64,000 nt of DNA from an uncultured Acidobacteriota bacterium. Its GTDB lineage: Bacteria; Acidobacteriota; Terriglobia; UBA7540. The position numbers were made by a program, and so were the translations under genes. Shown in pieces: positions 44,608 through 63,385 of this stretch. The notes under the pieces were generated by a model. It saw only the letters and a program-made list of their open reading frames with translations. It did not search any database and had not been told where the DNA came from. Location of the stretch: assembly GCA_963804995.1 (NCBI GenBank), contig CAWDSK010000005.1:160001-224000 (forward strand), given 5' to 3'. Numbering within the stretch: the stretch's first letter is position 1; every line of letters begins with the position of its first letter.

Positions 44608-45328
44608 GATTGCGGCATGGGGGAATAGGTATCCCGCCCTTTCAGGGCTGGCGGCAAAATTTGGGGTAATCTAAACCCAGGCCTTCAGCCTGGGCTTTGG
44701 AATTTCGCCCCTTTGGGGCTAAGGGGGAGATTGCGGCGTGAGGGAACACCTATCCCGCCCTTTCAGGGCTGGCGGCAAAATTTGGGGTAATCTAAACCCA
44801 GGCCTTCAGCCTGGGCTTTGGAATTTCGCCCCTTTGGGGCTAAGGGGGAGATTGCGGCATGGGGGAATAGGTATCCCGCCCTTTCAGGGCTGGCGGCAAG
44901 ATTTGGGGGTAATCTAAACCCAGGCCTTCAGCCTGGGCTTTGGAATTTCGCCCCTTTGGGGCTAAGGGGGAGATTGCGGCATGGGGGAACACCTATCCCG
45001 CCCTTTCAGGGCTGGCGGCGAAATTTGGGGTAATCTAAACCCAGGCCTTCAGCCTGGGCTTTGGAATTTCGCCCCTTTGGGGCTAAGGGGGAGATTGCGG
45101 CATGGGGGAATAGGTATCCCGCCCTTTCAGGGCTGGCGGCAAAATTTGGGGTAATCTAAACCCAGGCCTTCAGCCTGGGCTTTGGAATTTCGCCCCTTTG
45201 GGGCTAAGGGGGAGATTGCGGCATGGGGGAACACCTATCCCGCCCTTTCAGGGCTGGCGGCGAAATTTGGGGTAATCTAAACCCAGGCCTTCAGCCTGGG
45301 CTTTGGAATTTCGCCCCTTTGGGGCTGA
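44608..45328. repeat. Six-unit 121-bp tandem array of REP-like hairpins, alternating A/B variants
   Basis: Unit starts at 44608, 44729, 44850, 44972, 45093 and 45214; GAA-TAGGT-ATCCC alternates with GAA-CACCT-ATCCC. Confidence 0.92.
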
Positions 45329-46003
45329 GCGGGTAGCGCACAGGTGCGCGTGTTGTGCGTTCCCGTGTGGCCCTTCCCCGCGCGCTCACGCGAACCAGCA
45401 GCCGGGCACCAAAAGACAGTGGCTACTGGCGCGTGACGGGAGAACCGGGGAACGGGACACGGGATTCGGGATACGGGAGCAAATCCAGGGCTCGGGAAGT
45501 AGAGTGGCGAGTGACGAGTCGACAGGCCGACTCCCGAGTCCCGTTTCCCGTCCTTGGCCCCCTCGCAGTGCCCCCGACACTCCCCCGCTTCGTTTATCGG
45601 CGGTTTTTGGGGATGAGATGAGGATTTTCCCTGGCGGGGCGGAAAGCAGCAGCTTCGCCCCGTACCGGGCGGTACGGGGCTTCGCGGCCGCACTCCAAAG
45701 CGCCTGCGGCGCAAGTGACCCCTCATCCGGCCCGCGGTGGCTCAACCCTACCGAGAGCCTCGTCGGTGGCCAGTTCGACGTTTCCTCTTCGGTTAAGCAA
45801 GCGTAGCGCGGACCTGGTCTTTTAGGTCCGCGGCTTTTCGTGCCTGCCAGACGCGAATTAAAATCTCAATGCTGCGGGCGTTTATTAGCAGGCCGTACTA
45901 TGCTATGGTGCAAAGCTGTCTCCTTTCGTAAAATACATACTTGCATTTCGCGTTTCGAATTTCGCGTTTCGAGTTTCGAATTTCGACTTATGATGGTTCC
46001 CGA

Positions 46004-51986: not shown

Positions 51987-54900
51987 ATGACTGCCTGTTT
52001 TCCCGCGCGTATGAGGCGCCTGCGGTTCCGCAGTGCTTCAATCGCAATAATCGGTTTCGCCGCTTGGCTGACGCTCTGGGTGCCGGGGGGAGTCCTACGC
52101 GCCGCGCCGGCCGAGGGGGACGCGGACAAGGCAGTTATTCTCTTTGACAGCCTGGCCGAACCCCACGCCGAATCGTACATTCATGCCCTCTTCCTGAAAA
52201 ACCTGCTGACCCACTTCGGTCTCGAGGGAGACCTCATCCCGGTCAACGTGTATAAGCGGGGGCAATTGGCCGGCTACCGGGCGGGTTTCTTGATCGCCTC
52301 GACACTCGGCGCACAGATTCCGTCTGCCGTGCTCGCTGACGTGCTGGCGACTGACCGGCCTTTCGCCTGGATGGGCGGACATATCGATCAACTCCTCGAA
52401 ATCCCGGAAGCGCGCCGCCGTTTCGGCTTCAGCTTTGTCGAATATCGCACCGACCTCGATTACAGACACGTTGAGTACAAGGATACCCTCCTGGCCAAAC
52501 CGGAGCCGGACCTGAACATCGTGTCGATTACGAACCCGAAAGTCGCCCAGGTGGTGGCGACCGCCCTCAATCAGAAAAAAGTTTCGAATCCGTACGTAGT
52601 GAAGAGTGGCCACTTCTGGTACTTTGCCGACCGGCCGCTTTCCTACATGTCGGAAGGAACCCGCTACCTGGTGGTGTGTGACCTGCTCCATGACATCCTG
52701 GGCATCGACCACCCCGCCGAACAACGCGCCCTGGTACGCATCGAAGACGTGAGCGTGGACGACGATCCCGATGACCTCGTCAAGATTGCGGACATGCTCA
52801 AAAGCCGGCATGTGCCCTTTCAGATAGCCATCATCCCGATCTTCCGCGACCCCGCGCATTCGCTGGAGATCCGCCTGGGGGACCGCAAAGCGACCGTGGC
52901 GGCGATCCAGGCCATGGTGGCTCGCGGTGGGACGCCGGTCATGCACGGAACCACCCATCAGGTCCATGGGCTGAGCGGAGATGAGTACGAGTTCTGGGAT
53001 GAGCTGGGCGATCGGCCCGTGGGGGCCGACTCGGCGGAATTCGTGCGACGTCGGTTGCGGCAAGGCTTGAATGAGTTTTTCGCAAACGGAATCTATCCGG
53101 TCGCCTATGAGGTCCCGCACTACGCGGCGTCTGAGATCGACTACCGCACCCTGGGCCAAACGTTCTCGCTATTTTACGATCGCCCCATGGTGGTACCCGA
53201 CGCCACGACTCAACAGCTTGTGCCCTACCCCGTCGTGGATGGGTACGGCCGTCACATCATTCCGGAAGACATGGGATATCTTCCCGAAGACGATCCCGAC
53301 CCAGAAAAGTTGATCCGTTACGCCCACAGCCTGCGGGTGGTGCGCGATGGGATCGCCTCCTTCTACTTCCACCCGTTTCTGAACCAGAAGCTTCTGGAGC
53401 GAATCGTCCAAGGGGTTACCGAACAGGGCTATCACTTTGTTTCCTTGCGCGAGTTCGGCGGCACGGTTGACTTTGACGGGCTCTACGCGGTTCGTACGGC
53501 TACGGGGAATGTCCGCCTGTCCCCCCAGGATGAGTATTGGCGGGTGCAACAATTCGATGCCGGCGGCAGGTTGGTACGGACCGATCTATCGCCTGCGAGA
53601 ATGAAAGGCCCGGTTGATGTGGCGGTCGAGGTGCCGCCGGGCGGGTATACGGCCGTTGATTGCCTGCGCCAGTTGCCACGCGAACCTGAGCGCGCCACGA
53701 CTTGGCTCGAGCGGCTGCGGTTGTGGTGGAGCGGTGGACCGCCGCCCCCTCCTGCGCCCTCCACCGTGGTTCGCGACAAGTTCTCCGGGCCTCCCGTTGC
53801 TTGGCTCCTTTGGTTGGACAAACCCTCCCCCGGCGCGGGATTCAACCAGGAGAGTTACAAGACGGTGCTTGAGGCTTTGGGGTACCAGGTGCAGGTTGTA
53901 AAGAGCACCAAGTTCACCAGCCCACCGAGGGCCAGGGACGTGCTGCTGGTCATACCTCACGCCGTAGGGGCGCGGCTACCGGACGCGCGGCAAAAGCAGA
54001 TTGCGCAGTATCTCATGTCAGGCGGTGAAGTGCTTGCCGACCGGCAGCAGCCTTGGCTCGAAAAGGCCGGGTTTGCATTCCCAGGCGGCCAGATGGTGAT
54101 TACTTCCGTCACCGATTCTGAACACGCGGAAATGAAGTTGACCTGGCGGCCCGAGGAACGCATCGCGCGGTTTACGGCGCCGGAGGGCGCCCGGGAATTG
54201 ATGACCGATACGGAAAGCGGCCAACCGCTGGCGGTATCCGGTTCCGCCGGGGCAGGCCACTATCTGTACCTCGCAGCGGCGCTCGATAATCACACCAAAG
54301 ACGGCACCAGCCACTATCCCTATTTCCCGGAATACCTCAGCACCACGTTCGGCGTCAGCACCCCCCTGCGCAACACGCGCCTGGACGTTTACTTCGATCC
54401 CAGCTATCGCCCCGGCGCCGACTTCAACCGGCTGGCCACCATCTGGCGCCGCTCCGGCATCAGCACGATTCATGTCGCCGCGTGGTTGTCCACGCGCCAG
54501 TGGCCGTTTCCCTATGAAGAATTCATCCGCGACTGCCACCGCAATGGCATCGCGGTCTACGCCTGGTTCGTCTTCCCGGCCGTGGATAAGGTGGTGCCGA
54601 TCAGTAAGGGTACGATGTGGGATGAGCATCCGGAATGGCGGGAGAAAACTGCGGCCGGCACCGACGGCCAAGTCGGCTGGCGATACTTGATGAATTTCCA
54701 GGATCCCGACTGCTTCCAGGCAGCGATGGATTGGATGAAAGGCATCCTTAATCAGAGCGATTGGGATGGCGTCAATATCGCGGAATTGAACTTCGATGCC
54801 GACTTCAAGGATTACCTGCGCCCGGACAAGTTTGTTCCCATGAACGACATTGTGCGCGCGGACTTTAAGAAGAAAGCCGGCTTTGACCCCATCCAGTTAT

Positions 54901-56012
54901 TCCGGCCCGGCTCCCCCCACTACTACAAAACTGACCCGGCCGGGTTTGCTGCCTTCGAACATTACCGCGAAGACATCGTGATGGATTGGCACCGGCGCGT
55001 GCTGGGGGAAATCGAGCCCCTGCGCAAGCAGCACGGCTGGGAAGTCATCGTCACCGCGCTCGATAGCCTGCACGACAACTACGTAAAGCCTGCGCTGGGC
55101 ATGGACTCGCGCCGCCTGGTGGGCTTGATGAACGAATTCCCGTTCACCCTCCAGATCGAGGATCCCGCGCGCTTTTGGATGGCGCCCCCCGACCGCTACC
55201 AGCGTTTCGCTGCCACCTATCGAAAATTGATCCCCGATCCGCGCCGCCTGATGTTTGACGTCAATGTGGTCCCCGATCGGGATTTGAAGGGCACTTTCCT
55301 GCCCTCGTTCACAGCTACGGGCACGGAGTTGGCGCTGACGGTTGCCAGCGCCGCTTCTGTCGCGGGGCGGGTAGCGGTGTATTCGGAGCACACCGTGCCG
55401 CCCCAGGATTGGGATCTTATCCAGGTGGTGTTAACCCATCAGGCCTCGATCACCCCGGAGCGCAACGGCGTGGAGGTCAACACCCGCACCTCCCTACTCT
55501 TCACCCCCGCGGACGATCCTCTTTATTACGTCGACGGCCGCCTCTGGCCCGCTTTTTCTGCGGACGGCGTGGTGCTGCCCAGGGGACGGCACTCCATCTC
55601 CCCCAAACAGGATTGGTGGCGCTTCCTTCACACCGACGAATTCCAAGCGCGCATTGTGAATAGCTCCGCGGATCTGCTCGACGCCCAGGCTGACGCCACC
55701 AACCTGAAGTTCCATTATTGGTCGCCGGGCCGGGCGGTCATCACTTTCGATCAGCAGCCGCGTGATATCCTGGTGGATGGCGCCTCCCAGACCTTGCCCA
55801 CCGAGCGCAACCTCCGCAACTGGGCGGTGGTTTTCCCTTCCGGTGACCACCACGTTCTGGTTATCACAAATACCAAAGCCGGGGTGGCCGTGAATGTGGT
55901 AGGCTGGGCTTCTTCCTGGGCCATCGGCGCTTTCGGCATCCTGGTGACGGCCCTCATGGTGATTGTCTACTTGCAACTGCGCCTGGAGCGAATTATAAAA
56001 CGTAATGGATAG
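51987..56012 (+). CDS. Large periplasmic DUF2334 polysaccharide deacetylase fused to a glycoside-hydrolase-like domain, with C-terminal TM anchor
   Basis: Signal peptide; RIEDV, MHGTTHQ, PHY and FYFHPF deacetylase motifs; later CHRNGIAVYAW...HPEW...WDGVNIAE TIM-barrel-like region. Confidence 0.75.
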   Translation: MTACFPARMRRLRFRSASIAIIGFAAWLTLWVPGGVLRAAPAEGDADKAVILFDSLAEPHAESYIHALFLKNLLTHFGLEGDLIPVNVYKRGQLAGYRAGFLIASTLGAQIPSAVLADVLATDRPFAWMGGHIDQLLEIPEARRRFGFSFVEYRTDLDYRHVEYKDTLLAKPEPDLNIVSITNPKVAQVVATALNQKKVSNPYVVKSGHFWYFADRPLSYMSEGTRYLVVCDLLHDILGIDHPAEQRALVRIEDVSVDDDPDDLVKIADMLKSRHVPFQIAIIPIFRDPAHSLEIRLGDRKATVAAIQAMVARGGTPVMHGTTHQVHGLSGDEYEFWDELGDRPVGADSAEFVRRRLRQGLNEFFANGIYPVAYEVPHYAASEIDYRTLGQTFSLFYDRPMVVPDATTQQLVPYPVVDGYGRHIIPEDMGYLPEDDPDPEKLIRYAHSLRVVRDGIASFYFHPFLNQKLLERIVQGVTEQGYHFVSLREFGGTVDFDGLYAVRTATGNVRLSPQDEYWRVQQFDAGGRLVRTDLSPARMKGPVDVAVEVPPGGYTAVDCLRQLPREPERATTWLERLRLWWSGGPPPPPAPSTVVRDKFSGPPVAWLLWLDKPSPGAGFNQESYKTVLEALGYQVQVVKSTKFTSPPRARDVLLVIPHAVGARLPDARQKQIAQYLMSGGEVLADRQQPWLEKAGFAFPGGQMVITSVTDSEHAEMKLTWRPEERIARFTAPEGARELMTDTESGQPLAVSGSAGAGHYLYLAAALDNHTKDGTSHYPYFPEYLSTTFGVSTPLRNTRLDVYFDPSYRPGADFNRLATIWRRSGISTIHVAAWLSTRQWPFPYEEFIRDCHRNGIAVYAWFVFPAVDKVVPISKGTMWDEHPEWREKTAAGTDGQVGWRYLMNFQDPDCFQAAMDWMKGILNQSDWDGVNIAELNFDADFKDYLRPDKFVPMNDIVRADFKKKAGFDPIQLFRPGSPHYYKTDPAGFAAFEHYREDIVMDWHRRVLGEIEPLRKQHGWEVIVTALDSLHDNYVKPALGMDSRRLVGLMNEFPFTLQIEDPARFWMAPPDRYQRFAATYRKLIPDPRRLMFDVNVVPDRDLKGTFLPSFTATGTELALTVASAASVAGRVAVYSEHTVPPQDWDLIQVVLTHQASITPERNGVEVNTRTSLLFTPADDPLYYVDGRLWPAFSADGVVLPRGRHSISPKQDWWRFLHTDEFQARIVNSSADLLDAQADATNLKFHYWSPGRAVITFDQQPRDILVDGASQTLPTERNLRNWAVVFPSGDHHVLVITNTKAGVAVNVVGWASSWAIGAFGILVTALMVIVYLQLRLERIIKRNG

Positions 56013-56018
56013 AATCAT

Positions 56019-57287
56019 ATGCCTTACTCTAGTTGGGTCATCGACGGCTTCTTTGTCGCCACTGTTGCCCTGATCTGGTTCATGCTGGGGTACCAGTCCG
56101 TGCTCTTTTTCCTCGGGCACGGTTATTACCGGCGCACTCGCAAAGTTGCGCTGAAGACGCCGCAGCTCCCCGATTCCGAGCTGCCTTGCATCTCCGTGCT
56201 GGTGCCCTGCCACAATGAAGGGCGGGTTATCGCGCACACGATTCGCGCCCTCCAAAACCTGGTCTACCCGCCCGAAAAAATCGAGTTCCTCCTCATCAAC
56301 GATGGCAGCACGGACAACACCGCGCAGGTCATCCGCAGCTTCGCCGCCGATCCCCGCGTCCGCCTGCTGGACGTGCCTCCTAACCTCAGTGCCCGGGGCA
56401 AAGCCAGTGCGCTCAACTATGCCTTGACTCAGGCGCGCTATCCGGTCCTGTCCATTTATGATGCCGACAACCTTCCAGAGCCCACCGCCATTCGTACCCT
56501 GGCTTCAGAACTGGTGCGTCACCCGGAGCTGGCCGCCGCCGTGGGCATGTACCGCGCTTGGAACCGCCGCCGCGCCCTGCTGACCCGCTTCATCAACATC
56601 GAGGGCATCGGCTTCCAGTGGATTCTCCAGGCCGGCCGCTGGATGATGATGCGCCTCACCTTCCTGCCGGGCACAAACTACGTCATTCATAAGGCCATCA
56701 TCGAAAAACTTGGAGGCTGGGATGAGCAGGCCCTGACCGAGGATTCTGAACTGACCGTGCGCATTTATCAGGCGGGGTACGCCGTCCAGTTTGTTCCTAC
56801 CTCCGTCAGTTGGGAACAGGAACCGGAATCTTTCCTGAACTGGTTTCGGCAGCGCCGCCGCTGGGTGCGGGGCTTCAACTACGTGATGGTGAAACATTCC
56901 GCGGGGCTGCTGCGCACCCGCCCGCGTCGCGTGGCGTTTGAAATCCTCTCCTCGCACTTGTTGTACTACTTCTTCTTCCTGGCCGTCGTCATCTCCGATA
57001 TCCTCTTCGTTCTCTGCCTCTCACACCTCATCGTCATCAACGTGCCCGGACCTTACAGCATTGTGTGGATTCTTGCCTACGCCACGTTTGTCCTGGAGCT
57101 CGTGATCGCGCTCTCCTGTGAGCGCGGCGAAGATTCCATGCTCAATATTCTGTTGACCGTCCTCATGTACTTCACCTATTGCCAGCTTTGGATTCCCGTG
57201 GTGGCGGCGGCCTTCTACGATGACTTCATCATTCATCGCGAGATGAAATGGGCGAAGACGGAACGCTATCAGGTGGATCCGGCGTGA
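56019..57287 (+). CDS. Processive GT2 glycosyltransferase (YdaM/IcaA-like)
   Basis: DGSTD, GKASALN, YDAD, LTED and QRRRW motifs with TM helices. Confidence 0.9.
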   Translation: MPYSSWVIDGFFVATVALIWFMLGYQSVLFFLGHGYYRRTRKVALKTPQLPDSELPCISVLVPCHNEGRVIAHTIRALQNLVYPPEKIEFLLINDGSTDNTAQVIRSFAADPRVRLLDVPPNLSARGKASALNYALTQARYPVLSIYDADNLPEPTAIRTLASELVRHPELAAAVGMYRAWNRRRALLTRFINIEGIGFQWILQAGRWMMMRLTFLPGTNYVIHKAIIEKLGGWDEQALTEDSELTVRIYQAGYAVQFVPTSVSWEQEPESFLNWFRQRRRWVRGFNYVMVKHSAGLLRTRPRRVAFEILSSHLLYYFFFLAVVISDILFVLCLSHLIVINVPGPYSIVWILAYATFVLELVIALSCERGEDSMLNILLTVLMYFTYCQLWIPVVAAAFYDDFIIHREMKWAKTERYQVDPA

Positions 57288-57289
57288 GG

Positions 57290-57410
57290 GATTTTAGATT
57301 TTGGATTTTCGATTTTAGATTTCAAATTTTCGATTTTAGATTTTCGGTTTTGAATTTCCGATTTTGGATTCTCGATTTTGAATCTTGAATTTTAAATCTT
57401 GAATTAAAAA
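57290..57410. repeat. Heptamer tandem array (ATTTT(A/C/G)G)
   Basis: About 16 degenerate 7-bp units. Confidence 0.85.
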
Positions 57411-57493
57411 GTACCCCAGTTGGCTGGAGCAGCCCCCTGACCATTTGATTCTGCCCCCGCCTACCCATCCGCTGCCTCTCGGAAACTCATCCC

Positions 57494-58627
57494 ATGAGTC
57501 ATAAACGCTTTCACGTTCTCGTGGTCTTCGGCACGCGTCCGGAAGCCATCAAGCTTGCCCCGGTCATCCATGAACTCCGGCGCGCGCGAAGCCAGTTCAA
57601 GACCAGCATCTGCATCAGCTCCCAGCACCGGGATTTGCTGGAGCCGATTCTGCGCTGGTTTCGCATCCCGGTGGATTACGATCTGGACGTCATGCGTCCC
57701 GATCAGGAATTGTGCGGGCTGTCGGCGCGCATTCTGGAGAGGTTTCACGACGTGCTCACGCGCTGCCGGCCGGACCTGGTTCTGGTGCAGGGAGACACCA
57801 CCACGGTCATGACGGCCGGCCTGGCGGCCTTCTATCATCGCGTCCCCGTGGGCCATGTGGAAGCGGGGCTGCGCACGCTCAACCGCTATTCACCCTTCCC
57901 TGAGGAGATCAACCGCCGCTTGGCCTCGCATCTCGCTGACCTGCACTTTGCGCCCACCCCGTGGGCTCGAAGCAATCTTCTGAAGGAAGGCATTGCGCGT
58001 AGAAGTATTTACGTTACGGGCAATACCGTCGTCGACGCGTTTCTGGAGACGCGCACGCGGGTGGTCCGCCATCCTCCGGCTCTTTCTGAACTTTCGGACC
58101 TCAAGCTGGGGACGCGGAAGCTGATCGTGGTGACCACCCATCGCCGTGAGAACTTTGGGCCCGGCCTCGCCAATATCTGCAAGGCGTTGCGCCGCCTGGC
58201 AACCGAGCGCGACGACATCGAGATCGTTCTCCCCGTTCATCCCAACCCCAACGTGCAGTCGGTGGTGCGGCCGCTGCTGGGCGGAATCGACCGCATCCAC
58301 TTGATCCAACCCATGGAGTATCCGCAATTCGTGCGCCTCTTGAGCTCGGCCTACCTGGCGCTTACCGACTCGGGCGGTATCCAGGAGGAAATGCCGTCCC
58401 TGGGACGGCCGGTCCTGGTGATGCGCGAGAAAACGGAACGCCCGGAAGGCGTGCAGGCAGGCGTGTGCAAGCTGGTCGGAACTTCGACGGAAGTGATTGT
58501 ACGCACCGTCAAGCAGTTGCTCGACGACCCCAAGGCCTACGCCCAATTTTCAAAACGCCGCAGCCCCTTCGGCGATGGCAAAGCCGCCCGGAAAATCGTA
58601 GCCACGCTCAAGAAACTTTACACCTGA
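57494..58627 (+). CDS. wecB: UDP-N-acetylglucosamine 2-epimerase (non-hydrolysing)
   Basis: FGTRPEAIK, QGDT, HVEAGLR, HRREN and TDSGGIQEE motifs. Confidence 0.95.
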   Translation: MSHKRFHVLVVFGTRPEAIKLAPVIHELRRARSQFKTSICISSQHRDLLEPILRWFRIPVDYDLDVMRPDQELCGLSARILERFHDVLTRCRPDLVLVQGDTTTVMTAGLAAFYHRVPVGHVEAGLRTLNRYSPFPEEINRRLASHLADLHFAPTPWARSNLLKEGIARRSIYVTGNTVVDAFLETRTRVVRHPPALSELSDLKLGTRKLIVVTTHRRENFGPGLANICKALRRLATERDDIEIVLPVHPNPNVQSVVRPLLGGIDRIHLIQPMEYPQFVRLLSSAYLALTDSGGIQEEMPSLGRPVLVMREKTERPEGVQAGVCKLVGTSTEVIVRTVKQLLDDPKAYAQFSKRRSPFGDGKAARKIVATLKKLYT

Positions 58628-58843
58628 GCCCCCGCGGCAATAATTTCCGCTGATTTCTCACCAGCCCAGGCTTTTTCTAATAAGCCACCCGAAGCAGCGG
58701 GATAGAATTGGAATTCATAGCCCTCTCCGAGGGGAGAGGGTGGACCGCCGCCGGCGCTTTCATCAGCCGGGGCGGGCCGGGTGAGGGGTCACTTCATCAC
58801 CAGACGTGGGGGGTGGAGGTCGAGCTCCGCATTGCGCGCTCTC

Positions 58844-59060: not shown

Positions 59061-61880
59061 TCAGCGTTTTCCCCCCTGACATTTTGTTATGTGCGCCATC
59101 CCGCCCTTCTCGCTGCCTTCTGCTTTCCGCTTTCTGCCTTCCGCCTTCTGCCTTCCGCCTTCTGCCTTCTGCCTACTGTTCTTTCCAAAGTGCGCGGCGG
59201 GTTCGAAAGCTTTCTCAAGCGCCTGCCGGTAAGCTTCCACGTCGTAGCCCCTCCAACCTTCCCACAGAGTCCAGGCGCGCACGCGATCGTCGATGAATGT
59301 GGAGTCCGCATCGGTGATGATGAATTCGATGTTCTCACCCGGGCGCAACTTCACACCCGCGCGGTCCAGTTGCCGGGCGGCGATGGCGGTCACGCTGTTC
59401 TTCTGGTAGCTGGCGGGAGCTTTGGTAAGGCGTTTGCGAATGACCAGTTCTTCCGGAGCTACGCTACCATCCACGAGGCGCGCCACGTATTTTGCGTAGA
59501 CTTCCCGAGCCTCGCAGAGTTTGGCGCAATAGGTTGTGAAGTCGCGCGCCTCCGCCAAAATCGTCAGCACCTCAAGCTGCATCCTCGAGACCAGCGGCGG
59601 CGTGTCGTGCCGGCGGCATTCCAGCCCGCGCACTTTCAGCTCGCCCGCCTCCGACACGCAGAAAAAGCGGTTGGGCACCGGGATTTCCGCGCACTGCTTG
59701 GAAGGCAGGAAGACAACGTAGCGATAGACGGCCTCAAGCGCCAAGGGCAGGCCGGTGATTTGTTCGATTTCCTGCGCGAGCCGCAGATAGTCCGCGCGGC
59801 TGGGGACTGGGGGCTGGGGAACAGCCGAAACTCGAAAATCGAAATTCGAAACTCGCGAGGCAGTTACCGAATTTCGAGTTTCGGCCTTTTCGTAATCTCT
59901 GATTTTCGATTGCTGATTGTCGATTGAACCCGTCAATAATCGACCATCGTCAATCGTCAATGGAAAGCGAGTTTCGAATTTCGAATTTCGAGTTTCGGCT
60001 TTTTCGCAATTGCCGACTCCTGACTCCTCACTCCTAACTCCTGCCCCCTGCACATAGAGCGAATCCACCAGCGCATGCAGCACGCGGTAGCCTCGCTGCT
60101 CCGCCACCTCTTTCGCCACCAGCAATTTTTCCCGCGCCAAGGCATTGATGGCCTCGTGCGCTTCGATTTTCCCAAAGCGCGCGTTTTTGTAGCCGGTGTA
60201 CCCGAAGCAACAAACCAGCAGCCACTTCAGCACGTCGCGCCGCTGTTTACAGGCTGCGGGGTTCGGGATACGGGCTACGGGACACGGGATACGGGGTTCG
60301 GGATACGGGGTTCTGGAATCGGGAATCGGGATACTGGACACAAGATGTGGAGTTTGGGATTCTGAATTCGTGGTCCGGGGCTCGGGATTCGAAGTGGGAG
60401 AGGGGAGATTTGCCACAGAACTTTCTCCCTGCATCCTGAAACCTGGAGCCCCAATTCCGAATCCCGAATTCCGAGCCTTCAGCCCCGCAGGTTGGATTTC
60501 CAACCCCGCATCCCGTATCCCGTATCCCGTGTCCCGTGTCCCGGCCTCCGTATTCCGTGCCCCGTATCCCGTGTCCCGTATCTCCTTGTACTTTCGCCGC
60601 TTGGCGATGAGGCGCTCAACCACCCGGCTGGTGATGCCGCGATGCTGCTGGCAGACGCGATAGCCGAGTTCCGGCACGCGCGGCGCCTGCGGGCAGCACG
60701 GACAGTTCACCGTTTCCGGCGAAATATTGAAGCGCGCCATGATGCTGGGGAACTCGCTGACGAAATCCAGTTCCGCCACGTTTTCAAAGAAGCCGAGGCG
60801 CGGAGGAAAGACCAACCCGCCGCGGTCCGCAATCAGCAGCTCATCCGGGAACTTGGGGCTTTCCGGCTCCGCCTTTTGCGCCGGGATCAGCACTCCGTCC
60901 CGCCAGGCGAGTTCCATCTGCATATAGGAAATTCCCGTGCCCGGGGTGGTGCGGCAGGCGTATTGAACCGGCAATTTCGTGATCCGCACCAGTTCCCACA
61001 GGCCTTCCTGCTGGCACTGGTCGGCGCCAAAGGAATTCTGCGTGTCGATGTGCAGCCGCCCGAACAAGGTCGTGGTGCTGTCCTTGAACAGGATGCGCCC
61101 GTAGCTCATGTAACTGCGCGAACGCGTGCTCGCGACCGGCACCTGATCGCGATTCAAGGGCAGGTGGATGTGGCGCCGCTGGGCTTGCCGCAGCAAACTC
61201 GGCAGCAGGACGGAATCACCCCATTCGGTCACCAGCACGTCCGGGTCGTGGACGCGCAGCAGGCGCTCGAAAGTCGCCGCGACGGGTTGCTCAGAATCAT
61301 CCAGCACCTGCCAGTTGTCTTCGATGGCAACCTCCACAGCGCCGTGCCGCCCGTGCCGCGGATTGACGTCAGAGAGCCCTTCCAGGCGCATCCGCATGGT
61401 TCGGACGGGTGGCCGCTCGTAGTCGGTCCGCCACTCATCGTCGCGGCAGTCGATGGCCTGGATCTCACCCGCGGCATTCGCCTCAATCTCCACTTGCGCC
61501 AGGGGGAAAAGATTTTTCCCCCAACAGTACATCGGCGCCAGCATCAGGTCAGAGTCGTACAGGATCAGGTCGCTATCGAAGCGGCGGACGAAGCGCGCCA
61601 GCGGCGCGAACAGTGTGGGATGGTGCGCGGACACCTGGAGCACCCGCAGCGGTTGCCGGTCCCAGATGTTCTGCCGCTCCGTCAGTTGGCAGCTCACCCG
61701 AGCGCGGGCCGGGAGCGTTTCCGCCAGACGCGCCAGTTGCCCTTCCGGTCCCTGCACGTAAAAGCAGGGGAGGAAAGCGCTGTCAATCAGCCGGCGGCGC
61801 CTCTGGTTCGGCTCGATAAGCCACAGCACCATCCCCTGCGGGCAGGGGTAAAGGTTGAGAATCCATCCACTGAGTCTCAA
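59061..61880 (-). CDS. Family B DNA polymerase, PolB2-like, with in-frame repeat insertions
   Basis: Motif A LDFVSEFPSI..FNISPET; motif B LKWLLVCCFGYTGY; motif C HALVDSLYV; KVRGLECRRHDTP; degenerate exonuclease region. Confidence 0.88.
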   Translation of the reverse strand: MRLSGWILNLYPCPQGMVLWLIEPNQRRRRLIDSAFLPCFYVQGPEGQLARLAETLPARARVSCQLTERQNIWDRQPLRVLQVSAHHPTLFAPLARFVRRFDSDLILYDSDLMLAPMYCWGKNLFPLAQVEIEANAAGEIQAIDCRDDEWRTDYERPPVRTMRMRLEGLSDVNPRHGRHGAVEVAIEDNWQVLDDSEQPVAATFERLLRVHDPDVLVTEWGDSVLLPSLLRQAQRRHIHLPLNRDQVPVASTRSRSYMSYGRILFKDSTTTLFGRLHIDTQNSFGADQCQQEGLWELVRITKLPVQYACRTTPGTGISYMQMELAWRDGVLIPAQKAEPESPKFPDELLIADRGGLVFPPRLGFFENVAELDFVSEFPSIMARFNISPETVNCPCCPQAPRVPELGYRVCQQHRGITSRVVERLIAKRRKYKEIRDTGYGARNTEAGTRDTGYGIRDAGLEIQPAGLKARNSGFGIGAPGFRMQGESSVANLPSPTSNPEPRTTNSESQTPHLVSSIPIPDSRTPYPEPRIPCPVARIPNPAACKQRRDVLKWLLVCCFGYTGYKNARFGKIEAHEAINALAREKLLVAKEVAEQRGYRVLHALVDSLYVQGAGVRSEESGVGNCEKAETRNSKFETRFPLTIDDGRLLTGSIDNQQSKIRDYEKAETRNSVTASRVSNFDFRVSAVPQPPVPSRADYLRLAQEIEQITGLPLALEAVYRYVVFLPSKQCAEIPVPNRFFCVSEAGELKVRGLECRRHDTPPLVSRMQLEVLTILAEARDFTTYCAKLCEAREVYAKYVARLVDGSVAPEELVIRKRLTKAPASYQKNSVTAIAARQLDRAGVKLRPGENIEFIITDADSTFIDDRVRAWTLWEGWRGYDVEAYRQALEKAFEPAAHFGKNSRQKAEGGRQKAEGRKRKAEGSEKGGMAHITKCQGGKR

Positions 61881-62130
61881 GGTTTATTCCTAACGCCGCC
61901 TCGATTTTGCGCAGCCGGATTTCGTGGTCCAGCTCCACGGCCACGTGAATGCCGTGCATCGCGTCCACGGGAAAGTGATAGGTGCAAGCCTGCACGTAGA
62001 GGCGCACGCGATTGAACATCGCCTCCAGATACACTTGCTCTTCCTGGCGCAGGGCGCGGCCAAAGCGCTGCTTCCAGGATTGCAATTCCTGTTCGATCAG
62101 GTCACGAAAGGTGGCAACGGTTCGTCCCAT
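61783..62130 (-). CDS. Small helical PolB2-associated protein (arCOG07300-like)
   Basis: MGRTVATFR...W..F.RALR.EE pattern; lies between the RecA-like gene and polB. Confidence 0.75.
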   Translation of the reverse strand: MGRTVATFRDLIEQELQSWKQRFGRALRQEEQVYLEAMFNRVRLYVQACTYHFPVDAMHGIHVAVELDHEIRLRKIEAALGINLETQWMDSQPLPLPAGDGAVAYRAEPEAPPAD

Positions 62131-62270
62131 GGGTCCTCCTTCCAGGGGCTGGGGACTGGGCGTCAGGATCGAAACTCGAAATTCGAAACTCGAAATTCGG
62201 TGTCCCGCTCACGAGTTTGCCCGAGACTCCGTCGGGGCAAGGGGGCGAATTTCGAGTTTCGTCCTTTCCC

Positions 62271-63035
62271 CTAGCCCCCAGTCCCCAGCACCTTGTCCTT
62301 CTGCATCAACCCCAGCCGGCCCTGGGCATCGAGCTGAAACTTCCAAAGTTCGGTCGCGGCCGCGCAGGTCTGGGTGAAAAAGAGCTTGCGGCGCGCGGAC
62401 GGTTGGAAACCGGAGACGGAAGAAAACAGCGCCACCGTCAAAGGTAGCGCAGAGTTTTTGGGACTCTGCGGCGCGTCAGGCCCGAAACTTGAAACTCGAA
62501 ACTCGAAATCCGGCAGCTCGCTCACGATTTTCGAGTTTCGATTTTCGAGTTTCGCCGTTTCCCCAGCACCCAGCCCCCCGTCCCTGCCGGCGAGGACGCA
62601 GCGTCGGAGGTGCCCAAGCGCCTGCCGGAAGGTCGCCTGCGCGTCGGCATCGCGCACGTCCTCATCGAAATAAAGCTCGGGGAAGGCGGTGACCATCAGA
62701 ACCTGGGCGGGAAAGTCCGCCAGAAATTGGGGCACGCGACTGATCAGCTCGGTGAGTTGAAAACAGGTGAAGGCCCGCGCGATCTTGATCTGCCGGCTGA
62801 TTTGCGCAAAGGGGATCCCGCGCTGTTCCGCCAGCCGCGCGATCAGCCGCGGGTTGGCTGAGTTCGCGCCATCGAGAAACAGAATCCGCTTGCCCTCCCG
62901 CGCCAGGCGTGGCAGGAAGTAGTGGCTGAGCCGGGGCGCGTCGTACTCCCCGTGAAAGACCGCCAGGCCCTGCGGCGGCAGATGCCAGGGCTGGGTCAAG
63001 GCAGCCGGCAGCGAAGTTGGCCCCTGCATGAACAT
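62271..63035 (-). CDS. Inactivated RecA/RadA-like (ImuA-like) protein
   Basis: ILFLDGANSANP, IKIARAFTCFQL and LYFDEDV motifs; no intact Walker A. Confidence 0.75.
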   Translation of the reverse strand: MFMQGPTSLPAALTQPWHLPPQGLAVFHGEYDAPRLSHYFLPRLAREGKRILFLDGANSANPRLIARLAEQRGIPFAQISRQIKIARAFTCFQLTELISRVPQFLADFPAQVLMVTAFPELYFDEDVRDADAQATFRQALGHLRRCVLAGRDGGLGAGETAKLENRNSKIVSELPDFEFRVSSFGPDAPQSPKNSALPLTVALFSSVSGFQPSARRKLFFTQTCAAATELWKFQLDAQGRLGLMQKDKVLGTGG

Positions 63036-63064
63036 GACTCTATCCCCCCAATAGAGACGCCCTG

Positions 63065-63093
63065 AGTGTAGGCGAATAAAAAGCGAAAGTCAA
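63065..63093 (-). promoter_or_regulatory. Sigma70 promoter with a LexA-box-like direct repeat in the spacer
   Basis: Minus strand TTGACT-TTCGCTTTTTATTCGCC-TACACT: 17-bp spacer with TTCGC repeated at an 11-bp period. Confidence 0.75.
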
Positions 63094-63143
63094 GTCGATC
63101 GGAAGATCGGCAGTGTCCTAGTTTGGAAAGAAGCCCCAAGTGA

Positions 63144-63385
63144 CCCCTCACCCGTCCCGCCCCGGCTGATGAAGACGCCGGCTGCGGTCCACCCTCTCCC
63201 CTCGGAGAGGGCGGTTACTCAAGGTAAGGTGCGGTGCCGTAGCTACCCTGAGATCATAGCCTTCTCCCCAGGGGTCGCAGATCCGCCGTGGCGGAAGAAG
63301 GTGGCTGACGTAGGAAGCCGGATGAGGGGTTACTTGCACCTGCAGGGCGTCGAAACAATTTGCAACTCATAAATTCAAAAACTAT
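63144..63385. repeat. Copy of the CCCCTCACCCGTCCCGCCCCGGCTG element with a right TIR
   Basis: Matches 26007-26200. Confidence 0.8.

Follow-up and report, generated by a model that had tools for sequence, protein, structure and literature searches.

The window examined here, a 64,000-nt stretch of contig CAWDSK010000005.1 (positions 160,001 to 224,000) from an uncultured Acidobacteriota bacterium of the class Terriglobia (GCA_963804995.1), carries near its end an intact operon, iRadA-PPB2-PolB2, whose origin is archaeal. We judge with good confidence that this operon supplies a LexA-repressed, error-prone damage-tolerance polymerase that stands in for ImuA-ImuB-DnaE2, which the genome lacks. 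Gene content, a box in the promoter, and the distribution of the operon among related genomes are the observations behind this reading; a contact between two of the proteins is modeled, and LexA binding, induction, and polymerase activity would be expected by analogy with the families concerned.

The operon is of a known kind because bacterial iRadA-PPB2-PolB2 systems are already described. A first reading of this DNA from its letters (hereafter the sequence-only reading) had taken the system to be uncharacterized in bacteria, a claim that does not stand. Excerpts of PMC4104785 (Makarova et al. 2014) report bacterial iRadA, PPB2, and PolB2 genes in operons beside lexA, and PMC11791011 (Timinskas et al. 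2025) modeled a five-chain PolB2 mutasome for archaea and bacteria; the available part of its supplement has Acidobacteriota rows, among them a Terriglobia entry with HALVDSLYV. An excerpt of PMC12926913 repeats the bacterial mutasome account. The main text of PMC11791011 contains none of the terms ‘promoter’, ‘binding site’, ‘DnaE2’, or ‘ImuB’. Neither a bench test of a bacterial PolB2 nor an exclusion between PolB2 and DnaE2 was found in the literature searched; the supplements of PMC12926913, a source available in part, may bear on the latter.

An archaeal-type polymerase operon

The genes run on one strand in the order iRadA-PPB2-PolB2, here and in 26/26 related loci. Open reading frames (ORFs) and alignment bear out what the sequence-only reading had seen in the proteins, namely a first gene without Walker A, a small MGRT protein, and a B-family polymerase with KWLLVCCFGY, HALVDS, and a degenerate exonuclease region. 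Motif A of the polymerase is DFVSEFPS, the D(K/R) loop is present as ADRGG, and motifs B (KWLLVCCFGY) and C (HALVDS) lie at residues 552 and 602. HALVDS aligns to YGDTDS of Escherichia coli Pol II, with the first Asp of DxD replaced and the second kept; D352 and D606 are invariant across 133/133 aligned rows. The exonuclease motifs appear altered or deleted in the alignment with Pol II. The polB2 gene starts at a TTG codon within the PPB2 tail, and the two ORFs overlap; the offset of 250 nt between the PPB2 and polB2 starts is also seen in most relatives, and residues 1–10 of the polymerase have a predicted local distance difference test score (pLDDT) of 98 in the model.

Profile scores were 378 bits for NCBIfam NF004416 versus 54 bits for the Pol II model NF004421, and close homologues, at 71% identity, carry the Terriglobia label. 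Trees of 38 and 26 rows both place the bacterial PolB2 clade inside archaeal PolB2s, with a Shimodaira–Hasegawa-like approximate likelihood ratio (SH-aLRT) support of 98–100. The polymerase studied here neighbors Bathyarchaeia and Nitrososphaerota rows, apart from Pol II, T4 gp43, and PolB3-type rows, and a forced clade of bacterial PolB2 plus Pol II was rejected by the approximately unbiased (AU) test (p=4.9e-6). The archaeal PolB2 identity proposed earlier is thus upheld by phylogeny. The trees were quick ones with SH-aLRT support only, their archaeal B2 labels were assigned here from motif and gene context, and they included no Sulfolobales Dpo2 sequence; 6 of 44 planned rows were dropped from the 38-row tree by a motif filter, and three of these were restored in the 26-row tree. 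An AlphaFold model built on 133 sequences reached pLDDT ≥90 at 652/939 residues, and its best fold matches were archaeal PolBs; a single-sequence fold (pLDDT 35) was not used.

Two other identities were considered for the polymerase. A Pol II or phage origin is rejected by family scores, trees, and the AU test, and identity with E. coli Pol II (group G1) is rejected too, YGDTDS, placement in the Pol II clade, and intact exonuclease motifs all being absent. Seven matches came from a phage collection: four Leptospira phage records in the bacterial PolB2 clade, two Pol II-like sequences, and one weak match. A scan of viral contigs with a Pol II query gave no match. One of the four Leptospira records (L153:2147-5403) has two small ORFs upstream of its PolB2-clade polymerase. 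Haloarchaeal matches show the gene order cdc6, hypothetical, small hypothetical, polB, and the small protein aligns with PPB2.

The first protein, earlier called RecA-like, is RadA/Rad51-like instead: its profile matches at E<0.001 are RadA, Rad51, DMC1, and RadB (best E 8.5e-17), and it has neither a Walker A pattern nor an N-terminal domain. In PPB2, residues G2, R3, T4, R25, and L27 are invariant in 13/13 bacterial and archaeal rows. Complex prediction, which the sequence-only reading had suggested as a check, favors the pairing of PolB2 and iRadA. PolB2 residues 100–433 with iRadA scored 0.82, whereas none of three controls exceeded 0.00, on a scale whose mark was attained by 116/157 solved complexes and 2/215 mismatched pairs; the runs share at least 90% of contacts, with a partner pLDDT of 73. 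PolB2 residues 335–349, the loop before D(K/R), are predicted to dock on iRadA at residues 83–97.

The operon resembles bacterial type 1a (PMC11791011, PMC4104785) in gene order, MGRT arm, D(K/R) loop, lost first motif-C Asp, and decayed exonuclease, as well as in the predicted PolB2-iRadA contact (as in PMC11791011) and the link to lexA. Features beyond the type 1a account are an operator sequence, the near-exclusive distribution relative to ImuABC, a docking motif of the form PKxP, and heptamer inserts of large size; lexA is not adjacent. Dpo2 of Sulfolobus islandicus (PMC8764526 and PMC7390963, both available in part) belongs to the same polymerase group by motifs and archaeal PolB2 tree rows and likewise has no proofreading, and a damage-inducible role like that of Dpo2 would be expected here. 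However, Dpo2 is archaeal and experimentally tested, whereas control of the present operon is apparently by LexA.

The probable LexA box and its regulon

A promoter scan placed the operon promoter, TTGACT-N17-TACACT, on the minus strand at 63093-63065, as the sequence-only reading had described it; the spacer is TTCGC-TTTTTA-TTCGC-C. The hexamers alone are weak evidence because the scan gave 2 promoter-like sites versus 1.2 in shuffles. TTGAC is kept at the -35 place in most related operons.

The direct repeat that fills this spacer is likely a LexA operator, judging from its matrix score and its conservation. The same box fills the promoter spacer of lexA (box at C3:409626; gene at C3:409825-410544). 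In a genome-wide matrix scan the operon box scored 29.7 bits and ranked first; nine sites exceeded 25 bits, and a gap in the scores followed them. That rank is partly built in, and so partly circular, because the five other sites used for training had been selected by the very pattern under study. The highest-scoring sites stand before lexA, DUF72, an Rv2578c-type radical SAM gene, mrfA-mrfB, a DinB-family gene, a dCTP deaminase, and a DNA methylase. Among related PolB2 operons with upstream DNA the box was present in 24/25 and 16/16 loci (40/41). It was also found before lexA in 29/30 near relatives (the sole miss had an upstream stretch of just 42 nt) and, with scores of at least 17 bits, in 17/20 more distant relatives.

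The LexA box of Acidobacterium capsulatum is reportedly GTTC-N7-GTTC. Such a repeat had been proposed for this operon as well, and only its spacing held: the 11-bp period was recovered, and the letters differ. The 99 collected sites give the consensus DTTCGCYTTTTDTTCGCC; the two ‘G’ positions hold a G in just 12/99 and 15/99 sites. The box thus shares a direct repeat, an 11-bp period, and a TTC core with the alphaproteobacterial LexA motif GTTC-N7-GTTC (PMC3323433, available in part), unlike which G is rare at its first position. TTCGC-N6-TTCGC occurs 81 times in the genome versus 27–71 times at other spacings, a raw count that carries no weight, since a single repeated element accounts for 39 of these occurrences (counted by eye). 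The boxed genes outline a small, probable Terriglobia LexA regulon centered on damage tolerance, without recA and uvr, and the operator, together with the either-or pattern relative to ImuABC described below, opens the role of bacterial PolB2 to direct testing.

Several further sites and genes were observed alongside the regulon. Three consecutive half-sites, forming two overlapping boxes, precede the gene for a restriction-modification-type N6 DNA methylase of 931 aa (G000:C1:630418-630445), possibly an SOS-controlled defense gene. A 28.7-bit box (G000:C5:1252005, L005) precedes the dCTP deaminase, which is followed by a GNAT/ASCH-like gene and adjoins an IrrE-like peptidase gene. A 25-bit box (G000:C6:385328, L006) stands between a 692-aa ORF without a Pfam match and an opposite-strand HD-domain gene, and a weaker one (20.7 bits; G000:C5:1154138) lies 164 nt before a 506-aa ORF resembling a transposase by eye. 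The second LexA-like gene (G000:C6:1048739-1049350) has no box upstream. Both recN (C3:4087-5782) and dnaE (C7:34136-37622) are broken into two frames, probably by assembly indels. Among sequencing runs, the listing gave no RNA run and 11 DNA runs with small shares.

Distribution relative to ImuA-ImuB-DnaE2

The polymerases of this genome include one DnaE, one Y-family, and one PolB. The operon itself is not an ImuA-ImuB-DnaE2 system, as it contains no ImuB or C-family DnaE2. Co-occurrence was examined in 301 genomes of the class that were at least 90% complete, with DnaE2 called over the NF004225 cut-off. PolB2 was present in 63 and DnaE2 in 180; DnaE2 occurred in 3/63 PolB2-positive versus 177/238 PolB2-negative genomes. 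The pattern repeats within families, with DnaE2 in 3/32 PolB2-positive versus 14/22 PolB2-negative genomes of f1, 0/6 versus 19/22 of f4, and 0/12 versus 30/44 of f7. Both kinds of genome occur side by side in eight or more genera. When 17 of the PolB2 matches in this sample were checked, 16 had iRadA, PPB2, and the box, and one was ended by the contig end. Of 13 imuABC loci with DNA available upstream, 10 carry the box, one has a weak form, and two have none; 3/3 further loci carry it too.

The two systems likely do the same job, because related genomes mostly hold one or the other, under the same site. Within one genus, both place a RecA/RadA-fold helper and a polymerase without proofreading downstream of the same box. 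ImuA-ImuB-DnaE2 differs in having a C-family polymerase and an inactive Y-family scaffold, the proteins being unrelated, and in its chromosomal site (no surE or wecB beside those loci). The analogy to ImuA-ImuB-DnaE2 drawn in the sequence-only reading thus appears strengthened by the shared box and the near mutual exclusion. Going further, we lean toward the view that the PolB2 complex is a drop-in substitute, swapped repeatedly for ImuA-ImuB-DnaE2 under one LexA operator in this class. An either-or pattern under one operator is a natural experiment, and it suggests that B-family and C-family mutators are interchangeable.

Loci L117 and L118, from two genomes with 6% contamination (G022 and G023), hold a lexA-polY-dnaE cassette and an open frame that fuses a PolY part to DnaE.

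Proposed mechanism and alternative explanations

Upon damage, activated RecA would lead LexA to cleave itself and leave the -35/-10 spacer. A base would be inserted first, probably by the single Y-family polymerase (DinB, whose gene has no box) or by the replicase. A PolB2-iRadA-PPB2(3) complex without proofreading would then extend mismatched primer ends beyond lesions, in the manner of Sulfolobus Dpo2. Dpo2 is described as an extender in excerpts of PMC8764526 and as damage-inducible in excerpts of PMC7390963 and in the introduction of PMC11791011.

Several observations count against this account. In genus g36, three genomes have the two operons together, both intact and each with its box, and G022 and G023 combine PolB2 with a PolY-DnaE cassette on short contigs. 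Most genomes in the co-occurrence sample are drafts, only two candidates were scored per genome, and the P values overstate the association because kin are not independent. The box matrix has the circularity noted above, and the operon of one relative (G032) is without a box. At recA the box was found in 0/30 loci (best 13.2 bits; 95th percentile of random windows 11.0), and in this genome none of uvrA, uvrB, recN, and dinB has one upstream. The regulon is therefore small, and the expectation that recA, lexA, and uvrA would share the motif held for lexA and failed for the other two. In A. capsulatum, recA is said to be induced without a box. No clear beta-clamp motif was seen at either C-terminus, the docking motif is PKFP versus the Phe-x-x-Ala-like motif (FKxA) of most PolB2s, and the polB2 loci of relatives G013 and G014 carry frameshifts.

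The operon could be controlled by LexA and serve mostly error-free gap filling or fork restart, with the exclusion of DnaE2 reflecting lineage history or genome size. Such a role would agree with the high fidelity of Dpo2 on undamaged DNA (PMC8764526, excerpt), with the preference of DnaE2 for large genomes (PMC12926913, excerpt), and with the three genomes that retain both systems. We consider it unlikely, as the exclusion recurs in families f1, f4, and f7 and in two separate PolB2 lineages of the class, genera with both kinds of genome are repeatedly found, the 7.5-Mb genome studied here is without DnaE2 despite its size, and the PolB2 exonuclease is decayed. That the box is the target of a regulator other than LexA, or of an alternative sigma factor, appears highly improbable. 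The box does depart from GTTC-N7-GTTC at its first base, and it is missing from recA, the uvr genes, and the second lexA-like gene; yet it stands in the lexA promoter across the class and before imuABC operons, and its position, filling the gap between sigma-70-like hexamers, is the one expected of a repressor site.

There is an equally slim chance that the operon is decaying in this genus, with large repeat inserts (described below) reflecting relaxed selection on a protein that no longer works. Of the 39 heptamer arrays inside ORFs of at least 400 aa in this genome, nine are in polB2, and one insert starts a few residues past the catalytic Asp; the frameshifts in G013 and G014 and the bare remnant in G024 point the same way. 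Nevertheless, 34/36 length changes are in frame (multiples of three) versus one in three by chance, in an analysis where 6/27 loci could not be parsed. The N-terminal half of PolB2 is 75–85% identical within the genus, promoter and box are kept, and the inserts lie outside the confident fold. A LexA-repressed damage-tolerance polymerase remains the preferred reading.

Heptamer-repeat inserts

Unremarked in the sequence-only reading were in-frame heptamer inserts of ~190 residues in the polymerase and ~50 in iRadA (Table 1). PolB2 exceeds plain orthologues by this ~190-residue length because it contains two nested inverted arrays of 7-bp repeats. Both fold far below shuffles and are disordered in the model, and insert length among homologues ranges from none to >150 residues.

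Table 1 Features of the iRadA-PPB2-PolB2 operon and its repeat inserts (window positions)
Feature	Position	Strand	Details
iRadA gene	62271-63035	minus	254 aa; RadA/Rad51 fold without N-terminal domain or Walker A
PPB2 (arCOG07300 type) gene	61783-62130	minus	115 aa; N-terminal MGRT arm
PolB2 (group G2) gene	59061-61880	minus	939 aa; decayed exonuclease
-35 hexamer TTGACT (predicted)	63088-63093	minus	
Probable LexA operator (direct repeat, 11-bp period) occupying the promoter spacer	63071-63088	minus	matrix scan, box conservation
-10 hexamer TACACT (predicted)	63065-63070	minus	
In-frame heptamer-repeat hairpin insert in iRadA	62448-62600	minus	~50 aa; fold z -4.2
Heptamer hairpin in iRadA-PPB2 spacer, covering last iRadA codons	62131-62295	minus	fold z -6.8
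Nested inverted heptamer-repeat insert, PolB2 fingers tip	60240-60585	minus	~100 added aa; z -10.8; pLDDT <50 at 447-527
Nested inverted heptamer-repeat insert just past catalytic Asp	59785-60045	minus	~78 added aa; z -6.0; pLDDT <50 at 623-684
Unpaired heptamer array forming polymerase C-terminal tail	59115-59178	minus	z -0.1, no hairpin signal

Period-7 arrays number 974 genome-wide, and polB2 is the top in-frame sink for heptamer-repeat hairpins in this genome. Fourteen polB2 orthologues of the genus hold 76 arrays in 35 kb, and no heptamer arrays were found in ppb2, imuA, imuB, dnaE2, recA, or lexA of the same genus. The iRadA array count was inflated by cross-matches to polB2 inserts in 5/13 loci and was not used. 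The role of polB2 as a heptamer-hairpin sink was not found in the literature searched. Heptamer repeats are reported from Xanthomonas (GGGAATC) and Nostoc (GGGGA(C/T)T) in the available part of PMC4692102; those found here likewise consist of 7-bp tandem units, often in inverted pairs. Among 15 four-helix-bundle genes (PF05635), nine lie between inverted heptamer arrays, three have an array on one side, and three have none, a layout partly known from that work.

The hairpins are most likely selfish repeats that have accumulated in three loops able to tolerate them, where their translation gives disordered loops. Their concentration is most simply read as the outcome of this tolerance together with nested growth from an ancestral seed. 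Splicing of the inserts at the RNA or protein level is unlikely because the frame is so consistently kept. A more elaborate reading holds that PolB2 is a drop-in substitute for ImuA-ImuB-DnaE2 and that its long in-frame mRNA hairpins are a kept brake on the mutator, acting through cleavable stems or slowed translation. Such a brake would explain why the arrays gather in polB2 and are missing from the other genes named above; we regard this combination as rather doubtful. PolB2 as the maker of the repeats was not supported, polB2-less genomes (G017, G018, G021, and G028) giving as many repeat matches, and the idea that SOS mutator genes in general accumulate hairpins was rejected, with 0 arrays in 5 imuA, 5 imuB, and 4 dnaE2. 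The inserts illustrate how large an amount of foreign sequence can be accommodated next to the active site of a polymerase.

Flanking DNA

A 75-nt repeat resembling repetitive extragenic palindromic elements flanks the operon in inverted orientation (58720-58794 and 63138-63212). A composite mobile element bounded by these repeats was considered and rejected, as the repeat has 220 long copies genome-wide and, as far as the compared DNA extends, surE lies beside the operon in 7 relatives of the genus. Downstream of the operon (51987-58627) is a polysaccharide-type cluster with a 1341-aa ORF, a family 2 glycosyltransferase, and wecB. In relative G024 (L128:982-1620) polB2 is reduced to a remnant beside wecB and a glycosyltransferase, apparently through an internal deletion. 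Elsewhere in the window, a 121-nt unit is repeated six times at 95% identity (44608-45333), and there are further duplications of 118, 200, and 79 nt.

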